A DNA stretch of 64,000 nucleotides from the NCBI GenBank assembly GCA_043800755.1, contig JAZDMQ010000017.1, positions 34,297-98,296 of the forward strand, written 5' to 3'. Below the pieces are notes generated by a model that saw only the letters and a program-made list of their open reading frames with translations, did no database searches and was not told the origin of the DNA. Both the position numbers and the translations under genes were made by a program. The stretch is from a bacterium. GTDB taxonomy: Bacteria > Methylomirabilota > Methylomirabilia > CAVQYV01. The first letter of the stretch is position 1. Every line of letters starts with the position of its first letter. Positions 13,040 to 48,283 of the stretch are shown piece after piece.

Positions 13040-14394
13040 ATGGATTGGGAACGCATCGGAATCATCACCCTGTTATTCGCCTTGGGCTTCCTTGTCAGCG
13101 TGGTGTTGGCCGGACCCCCTTCCGGCAAGCTGGCTGATCCGCAGGACCCCTTCTTCCCCTCCCGCCTCTCGGCTGCGGGGGGCAAGGCGATCAAGGCCTC
13201 GGATTTCGAACCTCCAGAGGACTGCGGCGAGTGTCACGACCAGATCTACAGCCAATGGGAAGGTGGAATGCACGCTAATGCCTGGAAGGACCCTGCCTAT
13301 ACGGCCCTCCATGCCCTAGCCAGCAAGGAGACCCGTGGCCTCGCAGACCGCTATTGCATCGCCTGCCATGCGCCGGTCGCCGTCTTGTCTGGAGAGGTCC
13401 AGCCGGGAAAGGAGTTCAATGTGGGGGAGCTCTCCCAGAAGGGGGTGCAGTGCGATTTCTGCCATACCGTTTCCGGAAGCTTGGGAATCGGCAATCTGCC
13501 GGCGGTCTCCTCTCCCGGTCCGATCAAACGTGGTCCCTTCAAGGACAGCCAATCTCCTGCCCACGAGGTGGCCTTCTCCCCCTTCCATACCTCCGCCGAA
13601 TTCTGCGGGATGTGTCACGATGTCTACCATCCGGCCAACGGCCTCCCCTTGGAGAAGACCTACACGGAATGGTCTGAGGGACCCTATCCGAGCCGGGGGG
13701 TAAAATGCCAGGATTGCCACATGACCCCCGGGATCATTAAATTTCAGCCAAACCCCGGGGCTGCGGCCACCATGGGGCCCGCGCGGGAGCATATCTGGAC
13801 TCATAATATCGTGGGGGCCAACGCCGCCATGGCCTCCCACCTCGGGTTCAGGGGCCATAGCGAAATGGCTTTGAAGCGGCTAAAGTCGGCAGCGAGCCTG
13901 GAGATCCTCAGTCCAACGCAGGCCAGGGCCGGAGAGGTCGCCACGGTTAAAGTCAAGGTGGCCAATGTGGGCGCTGGCCATTTCCTGCCGACTGGATTGA
14001 CGGAGAGCCGGGAGATGTGGCTGGAGGTCACGGTAACGGGGCCGGGGGGAGCAAGGCTCTTCGTCTCCGGAAAGACCGACGAAAAGGGGGAGATCGATCC
14101 GGATGCCGTGCTCTACCAAACGGTCTTCGCCAATACCCAAGGAGACCCAGTGGGGGCTCGGGTCTGGGAGGCCGATCATTTGCTCTGGGATCACCGCATC
14201 CCCCCCTCGGCCATTCCCTGGAGCGGTTCAGCTTCCCGATCCCAGCGGGGATGAAGGGCAAGTGCCAGGTGGAGGCCAGGCTGCTCTATCGATCCTTCTC
14301 GCAGGGCGTGGTCAATCTGCTTCTGGGAGAAAAGGCCCCCGCCTGGCCCATCTATGAGATGACCCAGGCAGCGGGCTCCTTTGAGATTGACTGA
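13040..14394 (+). CDS. Membrane-anchored pentaheme c-type cytochrome (frame switch at a C7 run)
   Basis: N-terminal TM anchor. Five CxxCH sites (CGECH, CIACH, CDFCH, CGMCH, CQDCH). ORF 13040..14254 and its continuation 14017..14394 join if one C is added to the C7 run at 14200-14206 (...WDHRIPPLGHSLERF...). Confidence 0.7.
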
Positions 14395-15340: not shown

Positions 15341-15348
15341 TCAATCTC

Positions 15349-17199
15349 TCAAGGCAACAGGGACCCCTCCCAGGACCGCAGGAGGTCCTGGGCCTGGAAT
15401 CCCCAGGGCCAGAGCAAGGTTTCGGCAGCCTTGGCCAGATATTCCAGATATTTGGAAAGGCCGTACCCCACTTCCTCCTTCCATGGAGGGACCTTCACCC
15501 TCCGCCCTTTCTCCTTTGCCTCCACCTCCGCGAGCAGGAATTGAACCTCCTCTCCGGGATGTAGCCTCACCCCCTGCCGTTCTAATTCTTGGCTCGCCAA
15601 GGCGGTCCAGTTGTCCTGGAGATAATCCTCCGGCCTGTGGGAGAGGGTGCGGCAAATCAGTAATTCCTCCCGATCCACCTCCCCCCGCTTGAGCCTCTCG
15701 GCATATCCTTCCGCGAGGGCCAATATCCAGGGAATCCTTTCCTCCAGTTCGCTGCCACCTTTGGCCGAGGCCATCACCTGGAGCATCTCCAATTGGGCCC
15801 TTTGGACGAAAAGAGGGATATCTCCTCGCCGCAGTTCGATGCCCCTCGCCTTGATCTCGCCCGAGGCAAAGACCCCAAAGTAGCGATTCGCCACAGAACG
15901 GGAGTTGTCCAGGCGCGAGGAGGGAAAGGCGATCCAACGATAGATGCCCTCCAGACTCAAGGGGATACCGGTGACCTCCCCGATCCGGCGGCAGAGCTGC
16001 AGAAGATTCGCCTCCCTCATCCCCTCCTTCTGCACCCACAGGGAATCCACCAGGGCATGGAGCACCCGAAACCCCGCGGCCTCCGCGATCTCTTTGGCTT
16101 GGAGGAGCTTCTCGCGTCCAAAGGCGGTTACCACCTCGTGGGCCTCGATCCTTCCGAATCGGGCATTGCGGTATCCCAGATAGCCGAAGCAGGTGACCAG
16201 GATCCATTTGAGGGCCACCTGCCTTCGATCATAGACCCCCCCTTCCTCCCCCTGAGCCTCCTTCATCCGCTCCTTATATCTCCTTCGCTTCTCCAAGATG
16301 GGCTCCAGGGTTTTCGGCACCAATCCCCTCCGCCTCTGGCAGAGCACATATCCCACCTCCGGGACCCTCTCCCCTTGCCCCCCTCGACAGCAGGCGCAAT
16401 CCACCGTCTCCGGGGAAATATTATGCCTCACCATGATGGCCGGATACATGGAAGAGAAATCGATTTCTCCCACTCCCTGGTGCAGGCCGAGGACAGGTTG
16501 ATAGACCAGGCCTCCCTTGTCGGCCACCAAGAGCTGCGAGGCGCTTTTGAACCTCTCTGGCTCCCCCTTATTCCAGGGGATGAGGATGCCGTCCTGAAGG
16601 GCTCGATCCATTTGCATGGAGGTGATGCCGGTGCCCGGGGAACGCCGGGCCATCCTTTGCAGGGAGATCTTGGTGAGGCGCGAGAGCTCGATCAACCCTT
16701 CCAGGCCAGTCGCTTCCCAGAGGAAAGAGTTGCGGCGATCTATATGCCAACGCCCGAACAGGGGATAGGAGGGGGCCTGAGAAAGGATCCGACCGTAAGA
16801 GAAATAGGAGCGCCTCCTCCCAGGTAATGGCCCTCCTCACTCGCTCCCGGTCCAGCTTCAAAGGGATGCCCAGGCGCTGAGCCAGAGAGAACAGAGAGGG
16901 AAGGAGGTGGGAATCCCCCCAGCTACTCAGGATCAGGTCAGGATCGTAGTGGCTGATCAAACCCGCCCCTCCCTTGATCAGCTTCTCCCCATCTCCTCCC
17001 TTCCACATCCAGCATTCTCCCCCTACCTTGACCTGGATAGAAGGAAGCCTCCCCGGAGGCAGATGGCGAATCTCCTCCGCCGGCTCGACCTCCATCTGGC
17101 GCCGAAGATGACCCCCCCCTCCTCGATGAGCCAGAGGACGATCGTGTTAGCAGAGGGATAGAGGTCGAAGATCCAGCCCCTACCTCTTTTCCTTCCCAT
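15349..17199 (-). CDS. Divergent family-B DNA polymerase (E. coli Pol II-like) homolog with degenerate catalytic motifs; reading frame broken twice
   Basis: Three minus-strand frame segments align colinearly with E. coli PolB. (1) ~17199-17110: WIFDLYPS at the Exo I position (DIET becomes DLY). (2) 17095..16568: ISHYDPDLILSSWGDSHLLPSL...LGIPLKLDRE vs NYDPDVIIGWNVVQFDL...RLPLRLGRD (Exo II). (3) 16695..15349: motif A IDFSSMYPAIM; motif B KWILVTCFGYLG (vs KIIMNAFYGVLG); motif C HALVDS (vs YGDTDS); KKRY becomes ANRY. Frame breaks at the C8 run 17112-17119 and near 16700. Confidence 0.6.
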
Positions 17200-23815: not shown

Positions 23816-24743
23816 CTAACTCCCGCCCTTCCCCTGCCTGCTTTCCAGGCCCAAGTCTTCCTTTACCTTCAGGATCTGATCCCAGGTGAAAGGGTCAATC
23901 AAAACCCCTTCCTGGATACGCTGCCTTTCAGTTCTCCATTCCAGCTCCCCCGGGAGGAGGATCTCCTGACACCCTGGCCGCAGGCGGGAGGTCTTGAGGT
24001 GTCTTCCTAACTCTGCCACCTGAGAAGTGAATAGCTCTCGGGCCACGAAATCCTCCACCCTGATGGCAAACAAGAAGAGGCCCTGTAGGTCAGGACTCGT
24101 CTCTCTGCGGCTGTAGCCCGCCCCGGTCAAAATCCCGGCCAGGGCCTCCACCATCACTGCCAGGCCGTAGCCCTTGTATCCAGCCATGGGAAGGAGCGTT
24201 GCCGGAGGGGAGGCCTCCAGGGCAAGAGGATCAGAGATCGGGTTCCCCGCCGCATCCTGAAGCCAACCCAGGGGCAGATCCTCCCCTCGATTCCGCCTCA
24301 CCGCCACCTTGCCCATGGCCACCACTGAGGTTGCAATGTCCAGGCAGAGGGGGAAAGGCCCCGCCGGAATGGCAACCGCCAAGGGATTAGTGGAGAATCG
24401 CCCCTCCAGGCCTCCGAAGGGTGCCACCACTCCTTAATGCCTTGGCCACGGCGATCTCCGCCGCAAAGCGGCCGGTCACCTGCCCGAAGGCCTTGTGACC
24501 ATTGACCTGGGCAGTGGTAGCTCCTTCCGTCGCCACTTCTGGCCGGGCCCTTGGCTGGATCTGTCCCCGTTTGCAGGCCTCGAAATACTGGGGGATGCGA
24601 ATGACCCCGTGGGAGTCGTGCCCCCGCAGGTTGGAGCACACCAGAAGATGTGCTATCCAGGCTGCATCGTCGAAAGATGCCCCCATGGCCCCTACGATGC
24701 TGGCGACCTCCAATTCCAGTTCCCTCTTCGAAAAGGTAGGCAA
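23816..24743 (-). pseudogene. Ldh_2 family (malate/L-lactate/sulfolactate dehydrogenase type 2) gene with internal loss of ~40 codons and frame change
   Basis: N-terminal part (HGVIRIPQY...GQVTGRFAAEIAVAKA) and C-terminal part (VAPFGGLEGRFSTNPLAVAIP...GYKGYGLAVMVE) are in different frames. The ~40 residues between them, conserved in the family (e.g. E. coli AllD), are absent. Confidence 0.5.
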
Positions 24744-39069: not shown

Positions 39070-40539
39070 TTATTTCTTCCAGAGATACTCGATAATATTG
39101 ATGCCCAGTTCTCGGGGAAAGACGGACCGCACGATCTGCCTTCTCTCGGCCTCCGAGGCAAGGGCGATTATCTCCCCCTCCACTCTATTGCCCTTTGCAT
39201 CGCGGAGAAGCTCCACCCGGGGAAGGTGAAGGAATTCGGGATGGGGGCTAACCTCCACCACGATGCCCACCTCGCCCGAATCAAAAAGGAGCAGCGTCCC
39301 CCGGGGATAGATCCCGATGGTGTTCACAAAGACCTTGAGCAAGAGGGGATCGTAACCCTTCCCTCCTTCATCCATCATGATCGCCAACGCCTGATCCGGG
39401 AGAAACGGGTTGGGACGATATACCCGGGCCGTGGTCATGGCATCGAAGGAATCGGCGATCCGAATGATGCGCGAGAAGAGGGTCAACTTCCTCTTCTTGG
39501 ATAGTGGTGGATAACCGGAAAGGTCATAATTGAGGTGGTGCTCAAAGGAGGCAATCATCGATTGCAGGACCAGGTCATTCAGCCCCTTGAGCCGCATCAG
39601 GGGAAGGACGCCATAATACGGGTGGAGGGCTACAATCTTGAACTCGTCCTTTTCCAAAGCGGTGGGCTTATTGATCAATTCCTCCGGAATCCGAACCTTT
39701 CCGATATCATGGAAGAAGGCCGCCATCCCCAATTTGAACAGTTGCGACTTCGTATATCCGAGGCGCGATCCCAGGGCAGTGGAGAGGATGCTGACATTGA
39801 CCGAGTGGTTGGCCGTGTAATCATCATAATTCTTAATGGAGGTGAGGCCCAGGATGAACAAATCCTCGGACAAGATGAGGTCCACTAGGGATTGCACCAC
39901 TCTCTTGCTCCCCTTCATGTCAATTCGGTCCGAGGTGGCCGCCTGATCCAATACGCTCCGGATATTGGTGATGCCCTTGAGGAAGGTGACCTTCGCCAGT
40001 TCCCGGCCTTTGGAATCAGATCCCCCGGCTGAATAACGGGGAGCAATCAACCCATCCACGGCAATGCGGGCAATCCCATTCTGGATGAGCCGTTCCTGTA
40101 AGATTTGAGAGGGATTTTCCGCCTGGGTCTCCAGACCCAGCAGCAGGGAGATGAACTGCTGGAGATCTTCCGCCTCCACCGCCTCCCGGAAAATCACCGA
40201 ACCGATCTTGCGCCCCTTGAGTTCCTCCACTAGCCTGCTGTAGCTCAGGTATCCTTCGATGTCAAACCTGAGGCGTTGGTCATTGACAAAGAGATAGGAA
40301 TCGACCAGACGCAGTGAGACCTCTCCTTCCAGGGGAAGCAAGGAATTAAGGACCTCGGCCAATTTGTGCAGGGGGCGAAGGAAGGCCTCATTGGCCAATC
40401 CATACATCTTGGCGCTCTTGAAGGAGACATAGAGGAGGCTCACTAGGCTCTTCATCTCCCGGGCAATGCGCTCATCGATCACCTCGGTGAGCTTCACCCG
40501 GGAGTCCGCTCGGTGATCCCTCACGCCGAATCCTCCCAT
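39070..40539 (-). CDS. HD-GYP domain phosphodiesterase with N-terminal DUF3391-like sensor domain
   Basis: HD domain FFHDIGKV...HH and LNYDLSGYP (HD-GYP signature). N-terminal ~300 aa resemble the domain commonly preceding HD-GYP. The track ORF extends to 40938 through low-complexity sequence overlapping the upstream gene; start set at MGGFGV. Confidence 0.7.
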   Translation of the reverse strand: MGGFGVRDHRADSRVKLTEVIDERIAREMKSLVSLLYVSFKSAKMYGLANEAFLRPLHKLAEVLNSLLPLEGEVSLRLVDSYLFVNDQRLRFDIEGYLSYSRLVEELKGRKIGSVIFREAVEAEDLQQFISLLLGLETQAENPSQILQERLIQNGIARIAVDGLIAPRYSAGGSDSKGRELAKVTFLKGITNIRSVLDQAATSDRIDMKGSKRVVQSLVDLILSEDLFILGLTSIKNYDDYTANHSVNVSILSTALGSRLGYTKSQLFKLGMAAFFHDIGKVRIPEELINKPTALEKDEFKIVALHPYYGVLPLMRLKGLNDLVLQSMIASFEHHLNYDLSGYPPLSKKRKLTLFSRIIRIADSFDAMTTARVYRPNPFLPDQALAIMMDEGGKGYDPLLLKVFVNTIGIYPRGTLLLFDSGEVGIVVEVSPHPEFLHLPRVELLRDAKGNRVEGEIIALASEAERRQIVRSVFPRELGINIIEYLWKK

Positions 40540-42350
40540 GTACTTTGCGCCGAGAGCCGAGAAACCCGCGACAGGGCTGCCCGACATACCTGGCTGATCG
40601 CCTTGTCGGCTCCTCTCGCTCCTTCCCGCAACATCCCTTTGGCCGCGGGGGTTCCAATTAAGGCCATGGCGATGGCCGCTCCCTCCCTCATCTCCTCTAT
40701 CCTTCCCCGGTGGAACACGCTCTTTTTGAACAGGATCTCTCTCAGCAAGGGGAGGACCTGATCGGAGCCCAACTGACCGACTGCCTCCAAAATCTCCCTC
40801 TTTTCCTCCTGGCTCCGGTTTCGGAAATCCCTGTCCTCTACCATCTTCAAGAGAGGAGAAAGGGCCCTTTTTTCTCCCAGGCTCGCCAGGGCCCGCGCCG
40901 CTGCAACCTGCAGGGGGGCTGGGGAAGACTGGAGGCAAACGAGGAGATAGTCGCGTGAAGCGAGGTCTCCAATGGCCCCCAGGGCACGAATGGCCTCCTT
41001 CCAGACCCGAGACTCCCCGTCCTTCACTAGCTCCTTCAGATACCTCACCCCCTGGGGATCCCGCATCAAACCCAAGATGTAGGCCACATTCCGGGCCACA
41101 AACCAGCGCGAATCTTTGACCGCCGGTCCGAGAAGCTCGACATGACCTTGCGCCAATTGGGCGATGGAATCACAGAGAATGCGCCGTGCCTTCATCTGTT
41201 CAAGCTCCCCCAGAACCTCGCACAGGGGGAGAATTGCCTGGTGGTCAAGGAGCGAGACATAGGACTGAAAAGAGCGAAGTCCCCCCTCATCCGCACGGTT
41301 TAAGACCTTGGGTAGCCTCCTCAATCTCTCTGAACTCCCCATGCGCTTGACCGCTTCCCGGATCAGGCCTCGGCGCTCTTCAGACAGATTCAAGGGGAGG
41401 TCCATCAGTTGCCGCAGGTCCCTCAAAATCTGGTATGCCTTGAGGAAATTTCCTTGTAGGCAATAGGACTCGGCGATCCGCTCCACGATGGCCAAGATCT
41501 CCTTTGATCCCTCAATATCTTCCTTGGCCGATAGTATCTCCAACAACAGGGCTATGAACTCCTCGCCCAGATCCTTGTCCTTTTCCATCCCCATCTCCGA
41601 CTTGACCCTTTCCACCTCTTCCTCCGCGAGAGAGAAGATGGGAATCCTTCCTGCCGGGGCCGGAGGAATCAAGTCGGTGTAAGTCGGGAGGGAGTCGGCC
41701 GCGCCGGCCTGGGCCCCGGGGGATTGGGTATTCAAGGGGGCCTCCAGCTCAGCCTTTCCATGATCCAACAAACCTTGGGAGAGCGAGGAAAAGTCAATTT
41801 CCTTCTCCTCCTCCGCCATCACATCCACCACCATATAATCGATGTTAGGGAAATCCTTCTCCCAGAAAAGAGTAGCCAGATCATCATCTGCATCCGGCTC
41901 ATAAATGCTGGATTTGAGGACTTCCAAGAAGGTCTGGATCTCTGAAGGCTCAACCCCTTCGAAGAATCGGAGCCGGCGCAGGCCATCCTTATGCAGGTGA
42001 AAGGCCAAACTCTCCCCAGGGTCTCGATTTTCGTAGACGGTTTGCCCCTCGTAGTCGATCCGGAATTGCCCAATATTCCAGGTCATCACCGGCTGGGCCG
42101 TCAGGAAAGAGGCGAGGCTGTTGGCCAAATCCTGGAAGAGCTTCTGATAGGCGGGATTATCCGGATGGTAAACCCGGCTGGCCTTTAGGGCCTTGCTCAG
42201 GGAGAGCAGGACATCTCGTGCTGCCTTAAGCTCCAGGGCATCAGGCCCTGGAGCCCCTCCCTGGCTCATAGCCCCCTTTTCCTGCTGCGGCAGATGCGAG
42301 AGTCCGCTGTCCGGGGGGTTCGATGTGGCGTCGTTTGGGTTCATCCGCAA
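40521..42350 (-). CDS. HEAT/PBS-lyase-repeat protein with N-terminal domain homologous to the HD-GYP protein N-terminus
   Basis: 609 aa. C-terminal half has repeated HEAT-like units (VRYLKELVKDGESRVWKEAIRALGAIGD..., LQVAAARALASLGEKRALSPLLKMV...). N-terminal ~150 aa (SKALKASRVYHPDNPAYQKLF...FFEGVEPSEIQTFLEVLK) parallel the HD-GYP N-terminus (FKSAKMYGLANEAFLRPLH...IFREAVEAEDLQQFISLL). Confidence 0.6.
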   Translation of the reverse strand: MRMNPNDATSNPPDSGLSHLPQQEKGAMSQGGAPGPDALELKAARDVLLSLSKALKASRVYHPDNPAYQKLFQDLANSLASFLTAQPVMTWNIGQFRIDYEGQTVYENRDPGESLAFHLHKDGLRRLRFFEGVEPSEIQTFLEVLKSSIYEPDADDDLATLFWEKDFPNIDYMVVDVMAEEEKEIDFSSLSQGLLDHGKAELEAPLNTQSPGAQAGAADSLPTYTDLIPPAPAGRIPIFSLAEEEVERVKSEMGMEKDKDLGEEFIALLLEILSAKEDIEGSKEILAIVERIAESYCLQGNFLKAYQILRDLRQLMDLPLNLSEERRGLIREAVKRMGSSERLRRLPKVLNRADEGGLRSFQSYVSLLDHQAILPLCEVLGELEQMKARRILCDSIAQLAQGHVELLGPAVKDSRWFVARNVAYILGLMRDPQGVRYLKELVKDGESRVWKEAIRALGAIGDLASRDYLLVCLQSSPAPLQVAAARALASLGEKRALSPLLKMVEDRDFRNRSQEEKREILEAVGQLGSDQVLPLLREILFKKSVFHRGRIEEMREGAAIAMALIGTPAAKGMLREGARGADKAISQVCRAALSRVSRLSAQSTWEDSA

Positions 42351-42507
42351 TAGCCATCCTGACCCGGGGTCTGATTTGTTACTCAGGACCCATTATAATA
42401 GATGGTCAAGGAAGACCTGTCAAACTAAAAGGACATTATCCTCCCCCTGGGAGGGTAATGGGCTGTAACATCCGCCCAGGCCTTGCCAAGCCTTGGTTCC
42501 TGCCTTT

Positions 42508-43476
42508 TCAGATCCTGAGGCTTTGAACCCGATCCTTGCTCAGGCGAGGGGGCCGAATCCTGCCCTCATGGGCCCCTTCCACCCATATCTCCGGGATCTC
42601 GCCCGTGGCTGGAACATCAGCGAAAGCCGCGCAGATCCCCGCGGCCTGAAGCAAGGCCTCCTCCGGCGCCCCACCGCACACCAGGGCGACTGGCCCGGGG
42701 ACATGCTCGGCCGAAAGCAGGATATCTCCTTTCCTCGCCATTCCCTTGATCTGGTGATTCTCCTCCCTATCCCTTCCCAAAATGACTTTGATGCCCCCTA
42801 TGCGGAAGTGGCGACCTACCCTCAGGAGCTTCAGGTCCCGGAGATCGAAATCCCCCCTCCCCAACAACTCTCTCAATTTCATGGAGTACCCTCGATCGGT
42901 GAGGAGACAGCCACCGGCGGGCGTGCCGAATGCTGTCAGGCCATAGCCCTCGGCCAGGGCGAGCTGCCTCTTCCGGGACCGACCTTGAAGGTCGAGCAGC
43001 CCTTCCCGGTCGACCATCCCCTCCCTCTCTGCCCTGGTTTCAGGCAGAAGCCTGGCGCTCAAAGGACGGAGGAGGAGGTCTGCATAACCAGATAACTTCG
43101 CCACCAACGACAGGGATTGCCGGTTTTGCGACATGGGCCGTTCATTAAGGACCTCCCCGGTGAAAACAAAATCATAGCCTTCCGCTTCCATCATCTCCCC
43201 CGCCTTGCGAACCATCAGGGCATGACAATCGATGCAAGGATTCATGGCGGCGCCATATCCGTGGGGGGGATACATCACGATCTTAAGGTGCTCCTCGGTG
43301 ATGTCCAGGACTACCAAAGAAATTCCCAGCTGACCCGCTGACTGCCTGGCTTCCGCCGGTCCAAAGAAGGGCGTTTCAAAGGAAAGCCCGAGGAGCTCGA
43401 TCTTTTGATCCAGCAAGATCCTGGCTGCCAGGATGCTGTCCAATCCACCCGAGATCAGGCCAATCGCCTTCGGCAT
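42508..43476 (-). CDS. ThiI-like PP-loop ATP pyrophosphatase (tRNA sulfurtransferase family) with CxxC motif
   Basis: PP-loop GLISGGLDS. ThiI-like block NPCIDCHALMVRKAGEMMEAEGYDFVFTGEVLNERPMSQ (cf. ThiI LMRRMMxRIAExxGAxALVTGESLGQVASQT). Start set at MPKAIG with a GGAGGAG RBS; the track ORF extends to 43716. Confidence 0.6.
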   Translation of the reverse strand: MPKAIGLISGGLDSILAARILLDQKIELLGLSFETPFFGPAEARQSAGQLGISLVVLDITEEHLKIVMYPPHGYGAAMNPCIDCHALMVRKAGEMMEAEGYDFVFTGEVLNERPMSQNRQSLSLVAKLSGYADLLLRPLSARLLPETRAEREGMVDREGLLDLQGRSRKRQLALAEGYGLTAFGTPAGGCLLTDRGYSMKLRELLGRGDFDLRDLKLLRVGRHFRIGGIKVILGRDREENHQIKGMARKGDILLSAEHVPGPVALVCGGAPEEALLQAAGICAAFADVPATGEIPEIWVEGAHEGRIRPPRLSKDRVQSLRI

Positions 43477-43730
43477 AGTGTAGTCATCTCCTCCAGGAAG
43501 GGGCTTTTGGAGGGCTTCCCTAACTCCCCGCCCCTCCGTCCTGTTAATCATACCATAGAACGAGAAGGAATGCCGATGGATTTTGCTGGCCGCCGCTCTG
43601 GTGGACCTTGCCATCCGCCCCTCCAACCCCGCACCAGATAAGGGTCTGCAAAAACATTCGTTTTTTCCTTGACAAACCAACCCCAGATGTGGCAAAAACC
43701 GATCTCGTTTGCTCAAGAAAAGGAGGCCCC

Positions 43731-44036
43731 ATGTTTGCCTGGCTCTTCCATCGCATCAGTGGTCTGTTCCTAATCTTCCTCTTTGGCATTAAGATCTTCA
43801 GCGGGTTTTTCCTCTTTACCAAAGACAAGAAGCCTGATTGGGCCCTCCTTCTTCACCGACAGCCGATCGTGGATCTCCTGATCCTGATCCTCTTCAGTTT
43901 CCATGTCTTCTATGGGATCAAGACCATCCTCTATGATCTGGGAATCCGCCGGGAGAAAATCCTGTTCTGGGCCTCTACCCTCTTGGGAGGTATAGTCTCC
44001 ATCCTCCTGATCGCAACCTACTTTAAGGTCACCTAA
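43731..44036 (+). CDS. sdhC: Succinate dehydrogenase/fumarate reductase membrane anchor (cytochrome b-type) subunit
   Basis: 101 aa, 3 TM helices with conserved His (HRISG, FHVFYG). AAAGGAGG RBS. Immediately precedes the flavoprotein gene. Confidence 0.6.
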   Translation: MFAWLFHRISGLFLIFLFGIKIFSGFFLFTKDKKPDWALLLHRQPIVDLLILILFSFHVFYGIKTILYDLGIRREKILFWASTLLGGIVSILLIATYFKVT

Positions 44037-44039
44037 TCC

Positions 44040-45749
44040 ATGACTGAGATCTTTCGTCACCAGGTAATCATTGTAGGAGGAGGTTTGGCCGGGCTGCGTG
44101 CCGCAGTGGGCCTGGCTGACTCTTGCGATGTGGCGGTGGTGTCGCGGGTTCACCCCCTCCGATCCCACTCGGTAGCGGCCCAAGGCGGGATCAACGCCGC
44201 CCTGGCAAACCATCCGGACGGGCGAGACGACAGTCTGGACCGCCATGCCTTCGACACCATAAAGGGGAGCGATTACCAGGCCGATCAGCCGGCCGTGGAG
44301 CTGATGTGCCAGGAGGCCGGCCCTGTCGTTTATGAGATGGAACACTGGGGGGTTCCCTTCTCTCGCTTCCCTGACGGAAGGATTGCCCAACGCCCCTTTG
44401 GCGGCGGGGCCTTCCCCCGGACCTGCTACGCTGCAGATCGGACCGGCCATGTCCTCCTTCATACCCTCTACGAGCAGGCCGTCAGAAAGAGAGTGAAGAT
44501 CTACGACGATTGCCATGTGCTGCGCTTGGTGGCCTCTGATGGACGCGTATCCGGGTTGGGTGCCCTGCACATGCCGACGGGAAAGCTGGTCGGGTTTTCC
44601 GCCAAGGCGGTTATTATGGCCACTGGAGGCTATGGGAGGGTTTATCTCCGGTCGACCAATGCCCTGATCAACACCGGTGCGGGCATCGCCCTGGCCTATC
44701 GGGCCGGGGTCCCAATCAAGGACCTGGAATTCGTTCAGTTCCATCCCACTTCCCTTTACGGGACCAATATCCTCATGACCGAGGGGGCCCGGGGGGAAGG
44801 CGGGTACCTAATCAACAGAGCCGGGGAACGGTTCATGGAGCGCTACGCACCGGGCGCCATGGAATTGGCCCCCCGGGACATTGTGGCACGCTCCATCCAG
44901 ACAGAAATCAACGAGGGACGGGGATTCCAGGACGAGTATGTGTTGCTCGATCTGCGACATCTGGGCGCGGAAAAGATCAAGAGCCGCCTTCCCGGAATCC
45001 GGGAGATCTGCATTGATTTCTCCGGGGTGGACCCCATCGAGGCCCCGATCCCCATTCAGCCCGCGCAACACTATTCCATGGGGGGAATTGATGTGGATCA
45101 GGATTGCCGCTCTCCGGTGCCGGGCCTCTATGCGGCCGGGGAGTGCGCCTGCATCTCGGTTCACGGGGCAAATCGCCTGGGCGGAAATTCCCTGCTGGAG
45201 ACAATTGTCTTCGGAAAGGTGGCCTCAGAGAAGCTGCCCCCGGATCTGGAGACGTTGCCAACAGCAGAGCCGGAGGCGGTCGAAGCCGCAGTGAAGGAGA
45301 TAGAACAGGATCTTGCGTGCCTCTCTGATTCCCGGAGGGACGGAATTCCCTATACCACCATCCGCGACCGGCTGCGGGAGGTCATGTCGGAAAAGGCTGG
45401 CCTTTTCCGCACCCGTGAGGGCCTGGAGCAAGCAGTGGCCATCCTGAAAGGATTGAAGGAGGGGGTCAAGAGGGTGGTCGTGCCGGGGGGCGCCCCGAAC
45501 CGGCGATTCCACCAGGGCCTGATCAATGCCTTTGAGGTGGGATTGATGGTCGATCTCGGGGAGATCATTGTCGCGGGAGCGCTAAGGCGCGAAGAGAGCA
45601 GAGGTTCTCACTTCCGGACGGACTTCCCCCACCGGGACGATGCTCGCTGGCTCCATCACACCATGGCCAGCTGGACGCCGGACGGGCCTTCCTTTTCTAC
45701 CAAGCCAGTGGTAATTACCAAGTACCAGCCCCAGGCGAGGACCTACTGA
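44040..45749 (+). CDS. sdhA: Succinate dehydrogenase/fumarate reductase flavoprotein subunit
   Basis: 569 aa. FAD-binding VGGGLAGLRAA, the covalent-FAD His region (SHSVAAQGG) and HYSMGG. Confidence 0.9.
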   Translation: MTEIFRHQVIIVGGGLAGLRAAVGLADSCDVAVVSRVHPLRSHSVAAQGGINAALANHPDGRDDSLDRHAFDTIKGSDYQADQPAVELMCQEAGPVVYEMEHWGVPFSRFPDGRIAQRPFGGGAFPRTCYAADRTGHVLLHTLYEQAVRKRVKIYDDCHVLRLVASDGRVSGLGALHMPTGKLVGFSAKAVIMATGGYGRVYLRSTNALINTGAGIALAYRAGVPIKDLEFVQFHPTSLYGTNILMTEGARGEGGYLINRAGERFMERYAPGAMELAPRDIVARSIQTEINEGRGFQDEYVLLDLRHLGAEKIKSRLPGIREICIDFSGVDPIEAPIPIQPAQHYSMGGIDVDQDCRSPVPGLYAAGECACISVHGANRLGGNSLLETIVFGKVASEKLPPDLETLPTAEPEAVEAAVKEIEQDLACLSDSRRDGIPYTTIRDRLREVMSEKAGLFRTREGLEQAVAILKGLKEGVKRVVVPGGAPNRRFHQGLINAFEVGLMVDLGEIIVAGALRREESRGSHFRTDFPHRDDARWLHHTMASWTPDGPSFSTKPVVITKYQPQARTY

Positions 45750-46471
45750 TGGGGAGCCAAGAATACACCTTCCTGGTCTTTCGCTTCGATCCGGAAAGAG
45801 ATAGGGAGCCTCGATTCGATTCCTATACCCTGCAACTGGACGAATGGCAGAGCGTCCTCGGAGCCTTGATGGAAATACAGGATCGCCTGGATCCCTCCCT
45901 CTCTTTCCGTTACTCCTGTCGGGGGGCGGTGTGCGGCTCCTGCAGCCTATCCATTAACGGCTCCTTAGCCCTGGCATGCAAGACCCTCCTCTTTCGCCTC
46001 CCCGGGGGAACGATCACGGTGGAGCCCCTCCCCAACCTGGAGATTCAAAAAGATCTTGCCGTCAACCTGCAGCCTTTCTGGAAGGCCTATCAGGAAATCC
46101 AACCCTGGCTTCACACCGCAGGAGTCCTTCCCGAAAAGGAGTACCAGGTGTCGGAAAGGGAGAGGTCCCGAATTGACCAGTTTGTCAACTGCATCCTCTG
46201 CGCCTGCTGTTATGGGGCATGCCCGGCGATCGGACGAGACTCGGACTACCTGGGCCCTGCGGCCCTGGCCAAACTCTTCCGCTTCGTGGGAGATGTCCGC
46301 GATCGCAGGGAGGAGAGCCTCCTGCGAACGCTGGATGACCAGCACGGGGTCTGGGGCTGTGACACCGTCTTTCGCTGCATTGATGCCTGCCCCAAGGAGG
46401 TGCGTCCCACCGATGGCATCGCTGCCCTCCGTCGCAGTTTGATTGCGAGCAGGTTCGGGAGGAGGAGATGA
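45749..46471 (+). CDS. sdhB: Succinate dehydrogenase/fumarate reductase iron-sulfur subunit
   Basis: 2Fe-2S CRGAVCGSC and two Cys clusters CILCACCYGACP / CIDACP. ATGA-type overlap with sdhA. Confidence 0.9.
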   Translation: MGSQEYTFLVFRFDPERDREPRFDSYTLQLDEWQSVLGALMEIQDRLDPSLSFRYSCRGAVCGSCSLSINGSLALACKTLLFRLPGGTITVEPLPNLEIQKDLAVNLQPFWKAYQEIQPWLHTAGVLPEKEYQVSERERSRIDQFVNCILCACCYGACPAIGRDSDYLGPAALAKLFRFVGDVRDRREESLLRTLDDQHGVWGCDTVFRCIDACPKEVRPTDGIAALRRSLIASRFGRRR

Positions 46472-46941
46472 GGCTGAAAGAATCGTATATTTCCCGGCGG
46501 GCCTTTCTCTCCCGCCTCCTCGGAGGTTGGCTGGCAGCCCTGGCAGGCCTGGTGGTCTACCCGGTGGCGAAGTACCTGGCCCCGGCAGAGGCCCCCGATC
46601 CCCCCTTTATCTTGCTTCCGGCCAGCGACTATCTTTCCATCCCTGCCAACTCCACCAAGACCTTCCCCTGGGGGCACAAGATGGGGATCTTCATGAAGGC
46701 CACTGACCAGAGCCTGCGGGCCTTCAAGGGAACCTGCAGCCACCTCGACTGCAATGTCGCCTACAAGCCGGCTGAGCGGCGTTTCTTCTGTCCCTGTCAC
46801 GACGGCTGGTACGATGAGCAGGGACAAAACATTGCCGGCCCTCCACCCCGGCCCCTGGACCGGCTGGAGGTCCGAGTGCAGGGGGAGAAATTGATCGTCC
46901 ACCAGCCCGGGGTGACCCTTCCGCCGGAGGTGCTCGCATGA
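46468..46941 (+). CDS. Rieske [2Fe-2S] protein with Tat signal
   Basis: RRAFLSRLLGG twin-arginine motif. Rieske boxes CSHLDC and CPCHDG. 4-nt overlap with sdhB. Confidence 0.85.
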   Translation: MRLKESYISRRAFLSRLLGGWLAALAGLVVYPVAKYLAPAEAPDPPFILLPASDYLSIPANSTKTFPWGHKMGIFMKATDQSLRAFKGTCSHLDCNVAYKPAERRFFCPCHDGWYDEQGQNIAGPPPRPLDRLEVRVQGEKLIVHQPGVTLPPEVLA

Positions 46942-47999
46942 CGAGGCTGAGGGCCTGGCTGGGCGCGCGAATCGATCTGGAGAGGATAGAGACCTACATG
47001 CGGTCCAAGACCGTGCCCCACCACCGGCACAGTTATCTCTACTACTCCGGGGGGGTGCTCCTCTTCCTCTTGGCCATCCAGGTAATCACCGGCACCCTCT
47101 TGCTCGCCCACTATCGCCCAGGCGAGGACAGTGCCTTCGAGAGCATTGTCCATCTCGTGTCCAAGGTCCCCATGGGGGTCTACATCCGCTCGGTCCACTC
47201 CTGGGGGGCGAACCTGATGGTCTTCTTCCTGTTCTTCCATCTCTTTTCCATCCTCCTGTATCAGGGGTATCGTCAGCCCCGGGAGCTCACCTGGATCGGG
47301 GGATTTCTGCTCCTCATCCTCACCCTGGCCTTCGGTTTTTCCGGCTATCTGCTCCCCTGGAACCAACTGGCCCTGACCGCCACCAAGGTGGGAACCGACG
47401 CCCCCCGGGCCCTGGGCCCGCTCGGGTTGTGGTTCAGCCTCCTGTTGCGCGGGGGAGAGGACATCACCGGAGTCACCCTGAGCCGTTTCTTCGCCCTCCA
47501 TGTGTGGGGACTTCCCCTGCTCTTCTTTCCCCTTCTCGGACTGCATCTCTTCCTCATCCAACTACAGGGGGTGGCGGTCCCGCCCGGAATCGAGAGGAAG
47601 GAGGAATACAGCGAATTGCCCTTCTTTCCCAACTTCCTTTATCGGGACCTCTCTCTGTGGTTGGTGGTGTTCGGCCTAGTGGTGAGCCTGGCGGTGCTCT
47701 TTCCCTGGCCGGTGGGGGAAAAGGCGGATTTTCTGGCCCCGACCCCTGAACACATCAAACCGGAGTGGTATTTTCTTTTTCTCTTCCAGCCCCTCAAGCT
47801 CTTTCCGGGAAATATCCTCGGGGTCTCCGGTGAGACGGTGGCCATGATCCTGATCATTCTGGTCGGGCTGGCCGCCTTCCTTTACCCCCTGATCGATCGC
47901 GGGGCTCACCAGGGAAAAACGCCCTTCTGGCTCCGTCTGCTTCCCTATCTGGCCATCATCTATTTTTGTGCAATGACCCTCTGGGGGTTCCTCTCATGA
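46938..47999 (+). CDS. Cytochrome b (fused b6 + subunit IV type) of a Rieske/cytb complex
   Basis: 353 aa. Haem-ligand His in predicted TM helices (SVHSWGANLMVFFLFFHLF; FFALHVWGLPLL). PEW-like region (PEWYFL). Overlaps the Rieske gene by 4 nt. Confidence 0.85.
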   Translation: MTRLRAWLGARIDLERIETYMRSKTVPHHRHSYLYYSGGVLLFLLAIQVITGTLLLAHYRPGEDSAFESIVHLVSKVPMGVYIRSVHSWGANLMVFFLFFHLFSILLYQGYRQPRELTWIGGFLLLILTLAFGFSGYLLPWNQLALTATKVGTDAPRALGPLGLWFSLLLRGGEDITGVTLSRFFALHVWGLPLLFFPLLGLHLFLIQLQGVAVPPGIERKEEYSELPFFPNFLYRDLSLWLVVFGLVVSLAVLFPWPVGEKADFLAPTPEHIKPEWYFLFLFQPLKLFPGNILGVSGETVAMILIILVGLAAFLYPLIDRGAHQGKTPFWLRLLPYLAIIYFCAMTLWGFLS

Positions 48000-48283
48000 G
48001 CGTCTGGGCCTGGTTCCTCTCCCTGATGACACCTGCGGTGACCTTTGCCGCCACCCCAGAGGCGCCCCTTCCTCTTCTCCTCGACCCCCTCCCTGACCGC
48101 CTCCTCTTCCTGGTCATCCTCTGGGTGTTCATCATCGCGTTGGTAATCGTTCTCCGCTGGAAGGTCTCCCTGGCCGACGCCCTATTCCGCATGATGCCCC
48201 TGAACCAGAGAGGCTCACGGAAGAAGGTTAAGGTCGGGGAGTCGAATCGAGATTCCATCCCCGGGCCACCGGGGAGAGATTGA
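47998..48283 (+). CDS. Small membrane protein co-transcribed with Rieske/cytb (no haem-binding motif)
   Basis: 95 aa, N-terminal signal-like segment plus one TM. Start overlaps the cytb stop. Confidence 0.4.

Follow-up and report, generated by a model that had tools for sequence, protein, structure and literature searches.

Introduction

The membrane anchors of complex II fall into the classes A-F according to a 2023 review, which also states that complex II is missing from all structurally characterised megacomplexes save that of Tetrahymena (PMC10238741). For dihaem complex II, coupling of turnover to the proton-motive force has been proposed, a concept of Schirawski and Unden as cited in PMC3578206 and PMC7447783. 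Operons for Rieske/cytochrome b complexes vary in the partner module they carry, and those of Nitrospina, Kuenenia and M. oxyfera are octahaem-linked (PMC3578206). In the green sulfur bacterium Chlorobaculum tepidum, the Rieske protein reacts with a separately encoded cytochrome c-556 (PMC10172866). Here we describe a block of six genes in which both kinds of complex meet: sdhC, sdhA and sdhB, the succinate dehydrogenase (SDH) genes, are followed directly by the genes of a Rieske protein, a cytochrome b and a small subunit of 95 aa. The block lies in a stretch of 64,000 nucleotides from the 126-kb contig JAZDMQ010000017.1 of a Methylomirabilota bacterium, hereafter called the window. Relatives with at least 90% identity carry the label Candidatus Methylomirabilis sp. 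At the level of gene content, sdhCAB takes the place that a multihaem cytochrome holds in related Rieske/cytochrome b operons, and the two modules are co-inherited. Tentatively, and rating it somewhat short of an even chance, we propose that the six genes might encode one self-contained hybrid membrane enzyme which would work without a periplasmic cytochrome partner.

A conserved six-gene unit

When genomes were scanned with the cytochrome b family as seed, at least 80 loci were obtained, with a top identity of 51% among the matches listed. Five of them show the colinear order sdhC-sdhA-sdhB-Rieske-cytochrome b (L001, L002, L009, L020, L034) and stem from two Aminicenantes, a 'Clostridia'-labelled metagenome-assembled genome (MAG), Candidatus Desulfaltia (L009) and a 'Proteobacteria' MAG. 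The module is likewise present in the context loci L081-L083. Closer relatives, with a cytochrome b that is 63-73% identical, comprise the same six genes, while the flanks are syntenic in one of them and wholly different in another. A metagenome scan seeded with the SdhC family gave 80 loci, among which those that extend 4.3 kb or more downstream were regarded as testable. The preliminary description had suggested comparing the operon structure in related taxa, and such a comparison gave the same gene order, sdhC to cytochrome b, in 36 of 36 testable metagenome loci. In addition, the module was found in a 5.5-Mb MAG that consists of a single contig (ENA ERZ21831265, ctg82165c). The intact unit thus occurs in at least three lineage groups: NC10/Methylomirabilis-like bacteria, Syntrophorhabdaceae together with other Desulfobacterota, and Aminicenantes. 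Chance is far from sufficient to explain this arrangement.

In a neighbor-joining tree of 109 cytochromes b, the 46 sequences from sdh-linked loci form one clade with a bootstrap support of 92/100 as a bipartition. Pairwise distances of SdhC, SdhA, SdhB, the Rieske protein and cytochrome b correlate with r values of 0.91-0.98 across 43 loci; three loci with faulty open reading frame (ORF) calls were left out of this comparison. No flanking gene family common to all sdh-linked clades was found. Since the flanks change between clades while the block persists, the six-gene block itself is the unit of inheritance. The strict linkage, the single clade, the co-divergence and the exclusion of a multihaem cytochrome c discussed below all argue strongly for two modules that belong together, as the preliminary description had suggested. 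It had also considered that the arrangement might be the common and already characterized organization of the source lineage. It is indeed common, both there and in other lineages, while the full-text literature delivered no publication that characterizes it and no report of sdhCAB as partner of a Rieske/cytochrome b module; subscription-only surveys were outside this search and a prior mention is possible.

As for the neighboring genes, HD-domain, HEAT-repeat and ThiI-like genes are located upstream of sdhC at 39070-43716 of the window (minus strand). Together with a fab/acpP/plsX cluster downstream of the block, they are syntenic in the NC10-like group only (L081, L084, L085, L087, L093); of these, L084 and L085 stem from the JGI samples Ga0315289 and Ga0315274. 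In one Syntrophorhabdaceae-like subgroup, a NuoF-like gene (NADH dehydrogenase 51-kDa type, ~884 aa) is found immediately upstream of sdhC on either strand (L106, L108, L111, L122, L130, L133, L139, L142); it is not conserved in other clades.

Within the window, the block spans 4.6 kb, and its proteins correspond to the GenBank entries MFH0871159-164. In gene order, a 3-nt spacer between sdhC and sdhA is followed by overlaps of 1, 4, 4, and 4 nt. A Shine-Dalgarno sequence (AAGGAGG) is located 6 nt before the sdhC ATG. Terminator-like matches within the cytochrome b gene are weak, at about twice the shuffled expectation. The six gene identities given in the preliminary description hold, as the ORFs are found at the coordinates listed below and all products but the 95-aa protein have Pfam matches. 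Its statement that overlaps occur throughout applies to four of the five junctions and fails at sdhC/sdhA, whereas the tight coupling it had claimed is borne out by the junction spacing. Separate transcription from internal promoters had been named there as a finding that would speak against the idea; the consensus scan revealed no sigma-70-like promoter on the plus strand inside the block.

Linkage and junctions bear on one alternative explanation, namely that two independent enzymes are merely co-transcribed. These would be a single-haem complex II anchored by SdhC2 and a Rieske/cytochrome b complex lacking cytochrome c, both under shared regulation but otherwise unconnected, whether by physical contact or by a dedicated path for electrons. 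It is common for respiratory complexes to be grouped in operons for co-regulation. Besides, neither module lacks any of the residues that its function would require, and an SdhC homodimer could, as we infer, ligate one haem unaided. However, linkage holds without exception (36/36), the sdh-linked cytochromes b are monophyletic, and the divergence is correlated across phyla despite changing flanks, which is more than usual for separable enzymes under common control. Furthermore, the 101-aa SdhC family was never seen without Rieske/cytochrome b genes, and the overlaps of 1-4 nt cross the module boundary. Taken together, we consider mere co-transcription quite unlikely.

A multihaem cytochrome c is replaced in the operon

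Outside the sdh-linked clade, 51 of 59 testable loci encode a cytochrome c that has 9-11 CxxCH motifs and either follows cytochrome b or is fused to it. In contrast, a cytochrome c adjoins cytochrome b in none of 42 loci of the sdh-linked clade. Consequently, sdhCAB and the multihaem cytochrome exclude each other as partners within this Rieske/cytochrome b family. The CxxCH motif is absent from all six block proteins (0/6), in line with the lack of a gene for a c-type haem subunit noted in the preliminary description, and no ORF with two or more CxxCH motifs was found within 6 kb of the sdh-linked loci.

The loci with a multihaem cytochrome form a sister clade, and its hosts are Acidobacteriota, Bacteroidota/Ignavibacteriota, Zixibacteria, Gemmatimonadota and other MAGs. 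Both clades share a great deal: the cytochromes b are 45-51% identical and have the same 353-aa fused architecture of b6 and subunit IV, the Rieske proteins comprise a CxCHxG box without Ser, and the Rieske gene precedes that of cytochrome b. What differs is the partner. While the sister clade encodes a multihaem cytochrome c with a C-terminal transmembrane (TM) anchor, the sdh-linked clade comprises sdhCAB upstream and a small anchor-like protein downstream. Cytochromes c with such an anchor are encoded, for example, in L005 (9055-10422), L016 (9061-10395) and L026 (8966-10522), and fusions to cytochrome b occur in L006, L014, L025, L031, L033, and L047. This family of Rieske/cytochrome b/multihaem operons is large and apparently uncharacterized.

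A c-type cytochrome hidden nearby was rejected, given the empty 6-kb surroundings of the sdh-linked loci and the distance of 30 kb between the operon and the sole multihaem ORF of the window. The latter (13040-14254, plus strand) encodes 404 aa that include five CxxCH motifs and a match to a cytochrome c554/MtrC-like domain. It is the only ORF with several such motifs in the 64 kb and stands after phosphofructokinase and M20 peptidase genes.

The missing cytochrome also allows a different interpretation. The block might encode a fixed supercomplex of complexes II and III, a 'succinate:cytochrome c-type' oxidoreductase that would still depend on a periplasmic acceptor from a gene elsewhere. On the N side, SdhCAB would reduce menaquinone at the QP site or feed Qi/haem bH directly as in Mitchell's original Q cycle, while on the P side the Rieske centre would pass electrons to a soluble or membrane cytochrome or a cupredoxin. 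The Methylomirabilis group respires nitrite, NO and O2, the window organism is Methylomirabilis-like, and a gene for a five-haem cytochrome c is present elsewhere in the window. In addition, SdhC retains its proximal haem ligand as well as R8 and D69, which are of the QP type, while cytochrome b keeps PEWY, four His and the N-side residues of the sister clade; a normal Q cycle is thus plausible. Precedents are found in Mitchell's early scheme, in which SDH is the donor to centre N (PMC5600118), and in the Tetrahymena megacomplex, in which complex II adjoins complex III2 (PMC10227065; PMC10238741). However, a c-type cytochrome is encoded in 0/42 operons although it is near-universal in the sister clade, and the loss of the second anchor subunit and of the distal ligand would be left unexplained. 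Furthermore, many carriers belong to lineages from digesters and sediments, in which high-potential acceptors are scarce. Such a supercomplex thus appears unlikely.

The complex II head and its half anchor

The flavoprotein SdhA (44040-45749, plus strand, 569 aa) matches the Pfam families FAD_binding_2 (1e-116) and Succ_DH_flav_C (3e-34) and comprises the covalent-FAD motif RSH43SVAAQGG. As it has no signal peptide, it is predicted to be cytoplasmic. Its matches in the PDB are SdhA/FrdA chains, headed by 6lum_A (4e-146) and E. coli SdhA (1e-142). The iron-sulfur subunit SdhB (45749-46471, plus strand, 240 aa) matches Fer2_3 plus Fer4/Fer4_8. All three cluster motifs are present: C57x4Cx2Cx11C for the [2Fe-2S] cluster (C57-C77), C148xxCxxCxxxCP for the [4Fe-4S] cluster (C148-C158) and C204x5Cx3CP for the [3Fe-4S] cluster (C204-C214). 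With a flavoprotein, an iron-sulfur subunit and an anchor of the Sdh_cyt fold, the first three genes encode a member of the complex II superfamily, which comprises succinate:quinone and quinol:fumarate oxidoreductases (SQR/QFR).

SdhC (43731-44036, plus strand) is a three-helix anchor subunit of 101 aa, a 'half anchor', and the unusual shortness ascribed to this single anchor in the preliminary description is evident. It matches the Pfam family Sdh_cyt with 29.5 bits at a cut-off of 25.8. Its family is tight and comprises 298 clusters, almost all of exactly 101 aa, with named members from NC10, Syntrophorhabdaceae and 'Deltaproteobacteria' MAGs. The family profile matches E. coli SdhC as well as both SdhC and SdhD of Mycobacterium smegmatis Sdh2. 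In the structure of the latter (6LUM), haem bP is ligated by His D107/His C87 and haem bD by His D65/His C47 (PMC7447783). H58 of SdhC aligns with the proximal haem ligands of 6LUM and with H84 of E. coli, whereas the place of the distal ligands, His C47/D65 in M. smegmatis Sdh2, is taken in the alignment by an invariant Lys, K21. By alignment, R8 and D69 occupy QP-site positions of E. coli SdhC/SdhD. On the periplasmic side, an invariant polar cluster is formed by D36, W37, H42, R43, and D48; Cys is absent from the protein. Based on the H58 and K21 alignments and on this cluster, SdhC is half of a type-A-like anchor in which the proximal haem position has been retained, the canonical distal position has been lost and a strongly constrained outer face has been gained.

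A second Sdh_cyt gene was found in none of the 46 loci. SdhD is missing, and a conserved His is found neither in the Rieske anchor nor in the small subunit, so that a homodimer would be the simplest means of haem ligation. Thus SdhC probably forms a dimer that holds one proximal haem through H58 and H58'.

These features allowed us to compare the anchor with the established classes. Type A, with its two three-helix anchors and two haems, was rejected, as SdhD is missing from 46 loci and the invariant K21 occupies the position of a distal haem ligand. A type B enzyme requires a single five-helix anchor of ~200-250 aa with four His and two haems, while SdhC comprises three helices and 101 aa. 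Type C, in which SdhC and SdhD contribute a His each to a single haem, does not fit either: the SdhC-type His (H58) is there, but SdhD is not encoded and a homodimer would be required. Type E, with CCG motifs in SdhE/F, and type F, with a Rieske-type cluster in a six-helix SdhC, were dismissed since SdhC is free of Cys and the block has no gene for a CCG domain.

The Rieske protein and cytochrome b

The Rieske gene (46468-46941, plus strand) encodes a [2Fe-2S] protein of 157 aa with an N-terminal twin-arginine/TM anchor. It matches the Pfam families Rieske and TM_PetC (PetC TM anchor), and the motif SRRAFL marks it as a protein of the twin-arginine translocation (Tat) type, as had been suggested earlier. 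The cluster boxes read CSHLDC and CPCHDGWY, without the Ser of high-potential Rieske proteins. In a census of 46 sdh-linked and about 60 other loci, the residue after the Gly of box II was Trp in 46/46 of the former and variable in the sister clade. This Trp is compatible with a docking surface specific to the sdh-linked clade.

The cytochrome b (46938-47999, plus strand, 353 aa) is of the fused b6 plus subunit-IV type, as previously assigned. It matches Cytochrome_B and Cytochrom_B_C, has about seven TM helices according to hydropathy and finds its best PDB matches among cytochrome b6 chains (1.5e-44). The haem ligands H87, H101, H188, and H203 are invariant, and so is the PEWY motif at 275-278. 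With the cluster boxes, the Tat/TM anchor, the four His and PEWY, the two proteins represent a Rieske/cytochrome b complex. Membership in the b6f group with haem ci was rejected, because the CxGG motif reads YSGG and thus lacks the Cys. A strict bc1 or b6f complex was rejected too, since neither the block nor the 6 kb around any sdh-linked locus encodes a CxxCH protein. Clade-specific substitutions in cytochrome b are few, and the catalytic residues are kept in the sdh-linked clade. At positions 138-144 (window numbering), SGYLLLWDE is found in most Desulfobacterota-type members, in place of the SGYLLPWNQ of the window protein and the sister clade. This change affects a conserved cd-helix/Qo-proximal motif in part of the sdh-linked clade.

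The small subunit

The last ORF of the block (47996-48283, plus strand) encodes 95 aa counted from the ATG and has no Pfam match. Behind a signal-peptide-like N-terminus, the chain runs through a short periplasmic segment and a single TM helix into a charged cytoplasmic tail; the protein has neither His nor Cys (0 each). A hidden Markov model (HMM) of helix and tail detected the small subunit in all 46 sdh-linked loci with sequence past cytochrome b. In Candidatus Desulfaltia (L009, 7968-9230) it is joined in frame to the C-terminus of cytochrome b (E 2.4e-13). In this fusion protein of 420 aa, the signal peptide is missing and the mature part is fused. This fusion places the small subunit in the cytochrome b module, oriented with the N-terminus to the outside and the C-terminus to the inside, and it probably serves there as an accessory, eighth helix.

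The TM anchors of the sister-clade multihaem cytochromes consist of Y/F-R-R-x-G-L, a helix and K/R-x-I/L-E, and the small subunit looks similar. In reciprocal HMM searches of a database of 13,804 ORFs, the small subunit and the multihaem anchors were each other's top non-self matches, while the similarity is marginal with E values of 0.15-3.6. This is suggestive of a relic anchor, left by a multihaem cytochrome c that has been deleted. The preliminary description had instead considered the protein a displaced second SDH anchor. This idea is not supported, given the single helix, the lack of His and Cys, the fusion to cytochrome b in L009 and the resemblance to the multihaem anchor. Likewise, we rejected the ORF as SdhD, for which the absence of a Pfam match counts in addition to the same single helix, missing His/Cys and fusion.

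A possible hybrid of complexes II and III

How could these parts work together? In the mechanism we propose, the SdhAB head would sit on the single three-helix SdhC, which would be joined to the Rieske/cytochrome b module and its one-helix accessory subunit. During evolution, sdhCAB would have replaced the multihaem cytochrome as redox partner of this module. Electrons might then move between quinone and succinate/fumarate, in either direction, with no periplasmic cytochrome involved. SdhC is without the distal half of the electron wire, while cytochrome b has two stacked haems and an outer quinone site, and in this respect the parts are complementary. Cytochrome b would make up for the truncation of the anchor with a transmembrane two-haem wire and a menaquinone site on the periplasmic side (Qo). 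In this way, succinate:menaquinone or menaquinol:fumarate turnover could be linked to the proton-motive force, as in the dihaem enzymes of types A and B. A candidate for the wiring of the Rieske centre is the invariant periplasmic-side cluster of SdhC. Syntrophorhabdaceae are strictly anaerobic digester bacteria, and in digesters a periplasmic acceptor of high potential is unlikely. The idea of one complex without periplasmic cytochrome is thus based on three points: the absence of a cytochrome c gene from 42/42 operons, the anoxic lineages and the complementary parts.

However, several aspects weigh against such a hybrid, besides the marginal likeness of the small subunit to the multihaem anchors. 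The support for a physical association of the modules is comparative. Both modules look competent alone and might simply be co-expressed. SdhC has no canonical distal haem ligand that could take electrons on the periplasmic side. Since the N-side residues of cytochrome b (e.g., Q208) are the same as in the sister clade, no docking site is marked on this protein either. Furthermore, the simple wire model has no obvious role for the Rieske centre. If the Rieske centre and SdhC exchanged electrons across the membrane in addition to a full Q cycle, four charges would be moved per 2 e- by simple arithmetic. Consequently, electron transfer from menaquinol to fumarate (~100 mV) would be impossible and that from succinate to menaquinone wasteful. 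Without this exchange, in contrast, the Rieske protein would need an external partner. Finally, as Rieske/cytochrome b operons without cytochrome c also occur in green sulfur bacteria, the absence of a gene is no proof that the partner is absent. It is the Rieske wiring problem that keeps our estimate for a self-contained enzyme a little below even.

One might also speculate about a menaquinol-bifurcating complex. The first electron from Qo would reach a periplasmic acceptor via the Rieske centre, while the second would travel through haems bL and bH, SdhC and SdhB to FAD (flavin adenine dinucleotide), where cytoplasmic fumarate would be reduced. The anammox (Kuenenia) Rieske/cytochrome b clusters carry cytoplasmic flavoprotein subunits, and bifurcation models have been proposed for them. 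Here too, a cytoplasmic flavoprotein module is encoded beside Rieske/cytochrome b, and SdhC keeps the proximal haem ligand on its N side. However, fumarate is a high-potential acceptor with no need of a low-potential branch, the periplasmic acceptor would still be required but is never encoded, and the N-side residues of cytochrome b are unchanged. We thus regard bifurcation as highly improbable.

The most far-reaching version of the proposed six-gene hybrid would be a seventh architectural class of complex II with a Rieske/cytochrome b complex as membrane domain, and thus complexes II and III as one machine that does without cytochrome c. We consider this doubtful at present. If true, the Rieske centre would exchange electrons with one or more SdhC-bound cofactors, and succinate oxidation linked to the low-potential menaquinone would be driven by a reversed Q cycle with up to 4 H+ per 2 e-. 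If the wiring were on the N side instead, SDH would feed centre N directly, which would be the literal version of Mitchell's original Q cycle.

Complex II is almost never bound to other respiratory complexes, and the locus would add a widespread anchor type to those described, a single 101-aa subunit that always occurs together with Rieske/cytochrome b. Anaerobes and syntrophs face a classic energetic bottleneck in menaquinone-linked succinate oxidation, and a hybrid that borrows the two-haem wire and the outer quinone site of cytochrome b would, if true, be a new solution to it. In addition, the locus is a test case for the reuse of Rieske/cytochrome b complexes: a multihaem cytochrome was swapped for a flavoenzyme, and its membrane anchor was apparently left behind as small subunit. 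The compact module is found in complete MAGs, and cultured relatives may have it as well.

Other observations in the window

Two further ORFs match their models only in part. At 15349-16695 (minus strand), an ORF of 448 aa matches only positions 13-202 of the 453-position model for family B DNA polymerases; it overlaps the ORF at 15341-16207 and is possibly a truncated or degraded polB-like gene. At 23816-24430 (minus strand), an ORF of 204 aa matches only positions 141-332 of 333, the C-terminal part, of the Ldh_2 malate/L-lactate dehydrogenase model; this may be a frameshifted gene or one with a misplaced start.

Comparison with known systems

None of the anchor classes A-F fits this system, while several known enzymes share single features with it. 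The nearest type C enzyme is E. coli SdhCDAB (1NEK), which has in common with SdhC the HRxSG motif, a haem ligand at the equivalent position (H84 for H58), D-x-G after this ligand and one haem level. However, E. coli SdhD supplies the second haem ligand and the QP site, and there is no SdhD equivalent here. Compared to type A, represented by M. smegmatis Sdh2 (6LUM) with SdhA, B, C, D, and SdhF, the block comprises only one anchor gene and no SdhD. An invariant Lys replaces the distal haem ligand, and Rieske/cytochrome b genes are part of the same operon. Furthermore, the small subunit has no relationship to SdhF and is a component of the cytochrome b module.

M. smegmatis Sdh1 (7D6V), of type F, resembles the proposed hybrid in so far as it is a complex II with a Rieske-type [2Fe-2S] centre as membrane-side cofactor (PMC8054011). 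In contrast, its cluster resides in an unrelated six-helix SdhC, and neither a bc-type Rieske protein nor a cytochrome b is involved (PMC8054011). Being free of Cys, the SdhC described here cannot hold such a cluster.

C. tepidum shares with our locus a Rieske/cytochrome b operon that lacks a cytochrome c1-type subunit. However, a c-type partner is known there, and that operon is without complex II genes. Finally, the Tetrahymena megacomplex (I+III2+II, IV2) has complex II physically beside complex III2 (PMC10227065; PMC10238741). This assembly is eukaryotic and loose, and its members are joined neither by a dedicated path for electrons nor by a common operon, whereas in the six-gene block both modules are encoded side by side and inherited as one unit.

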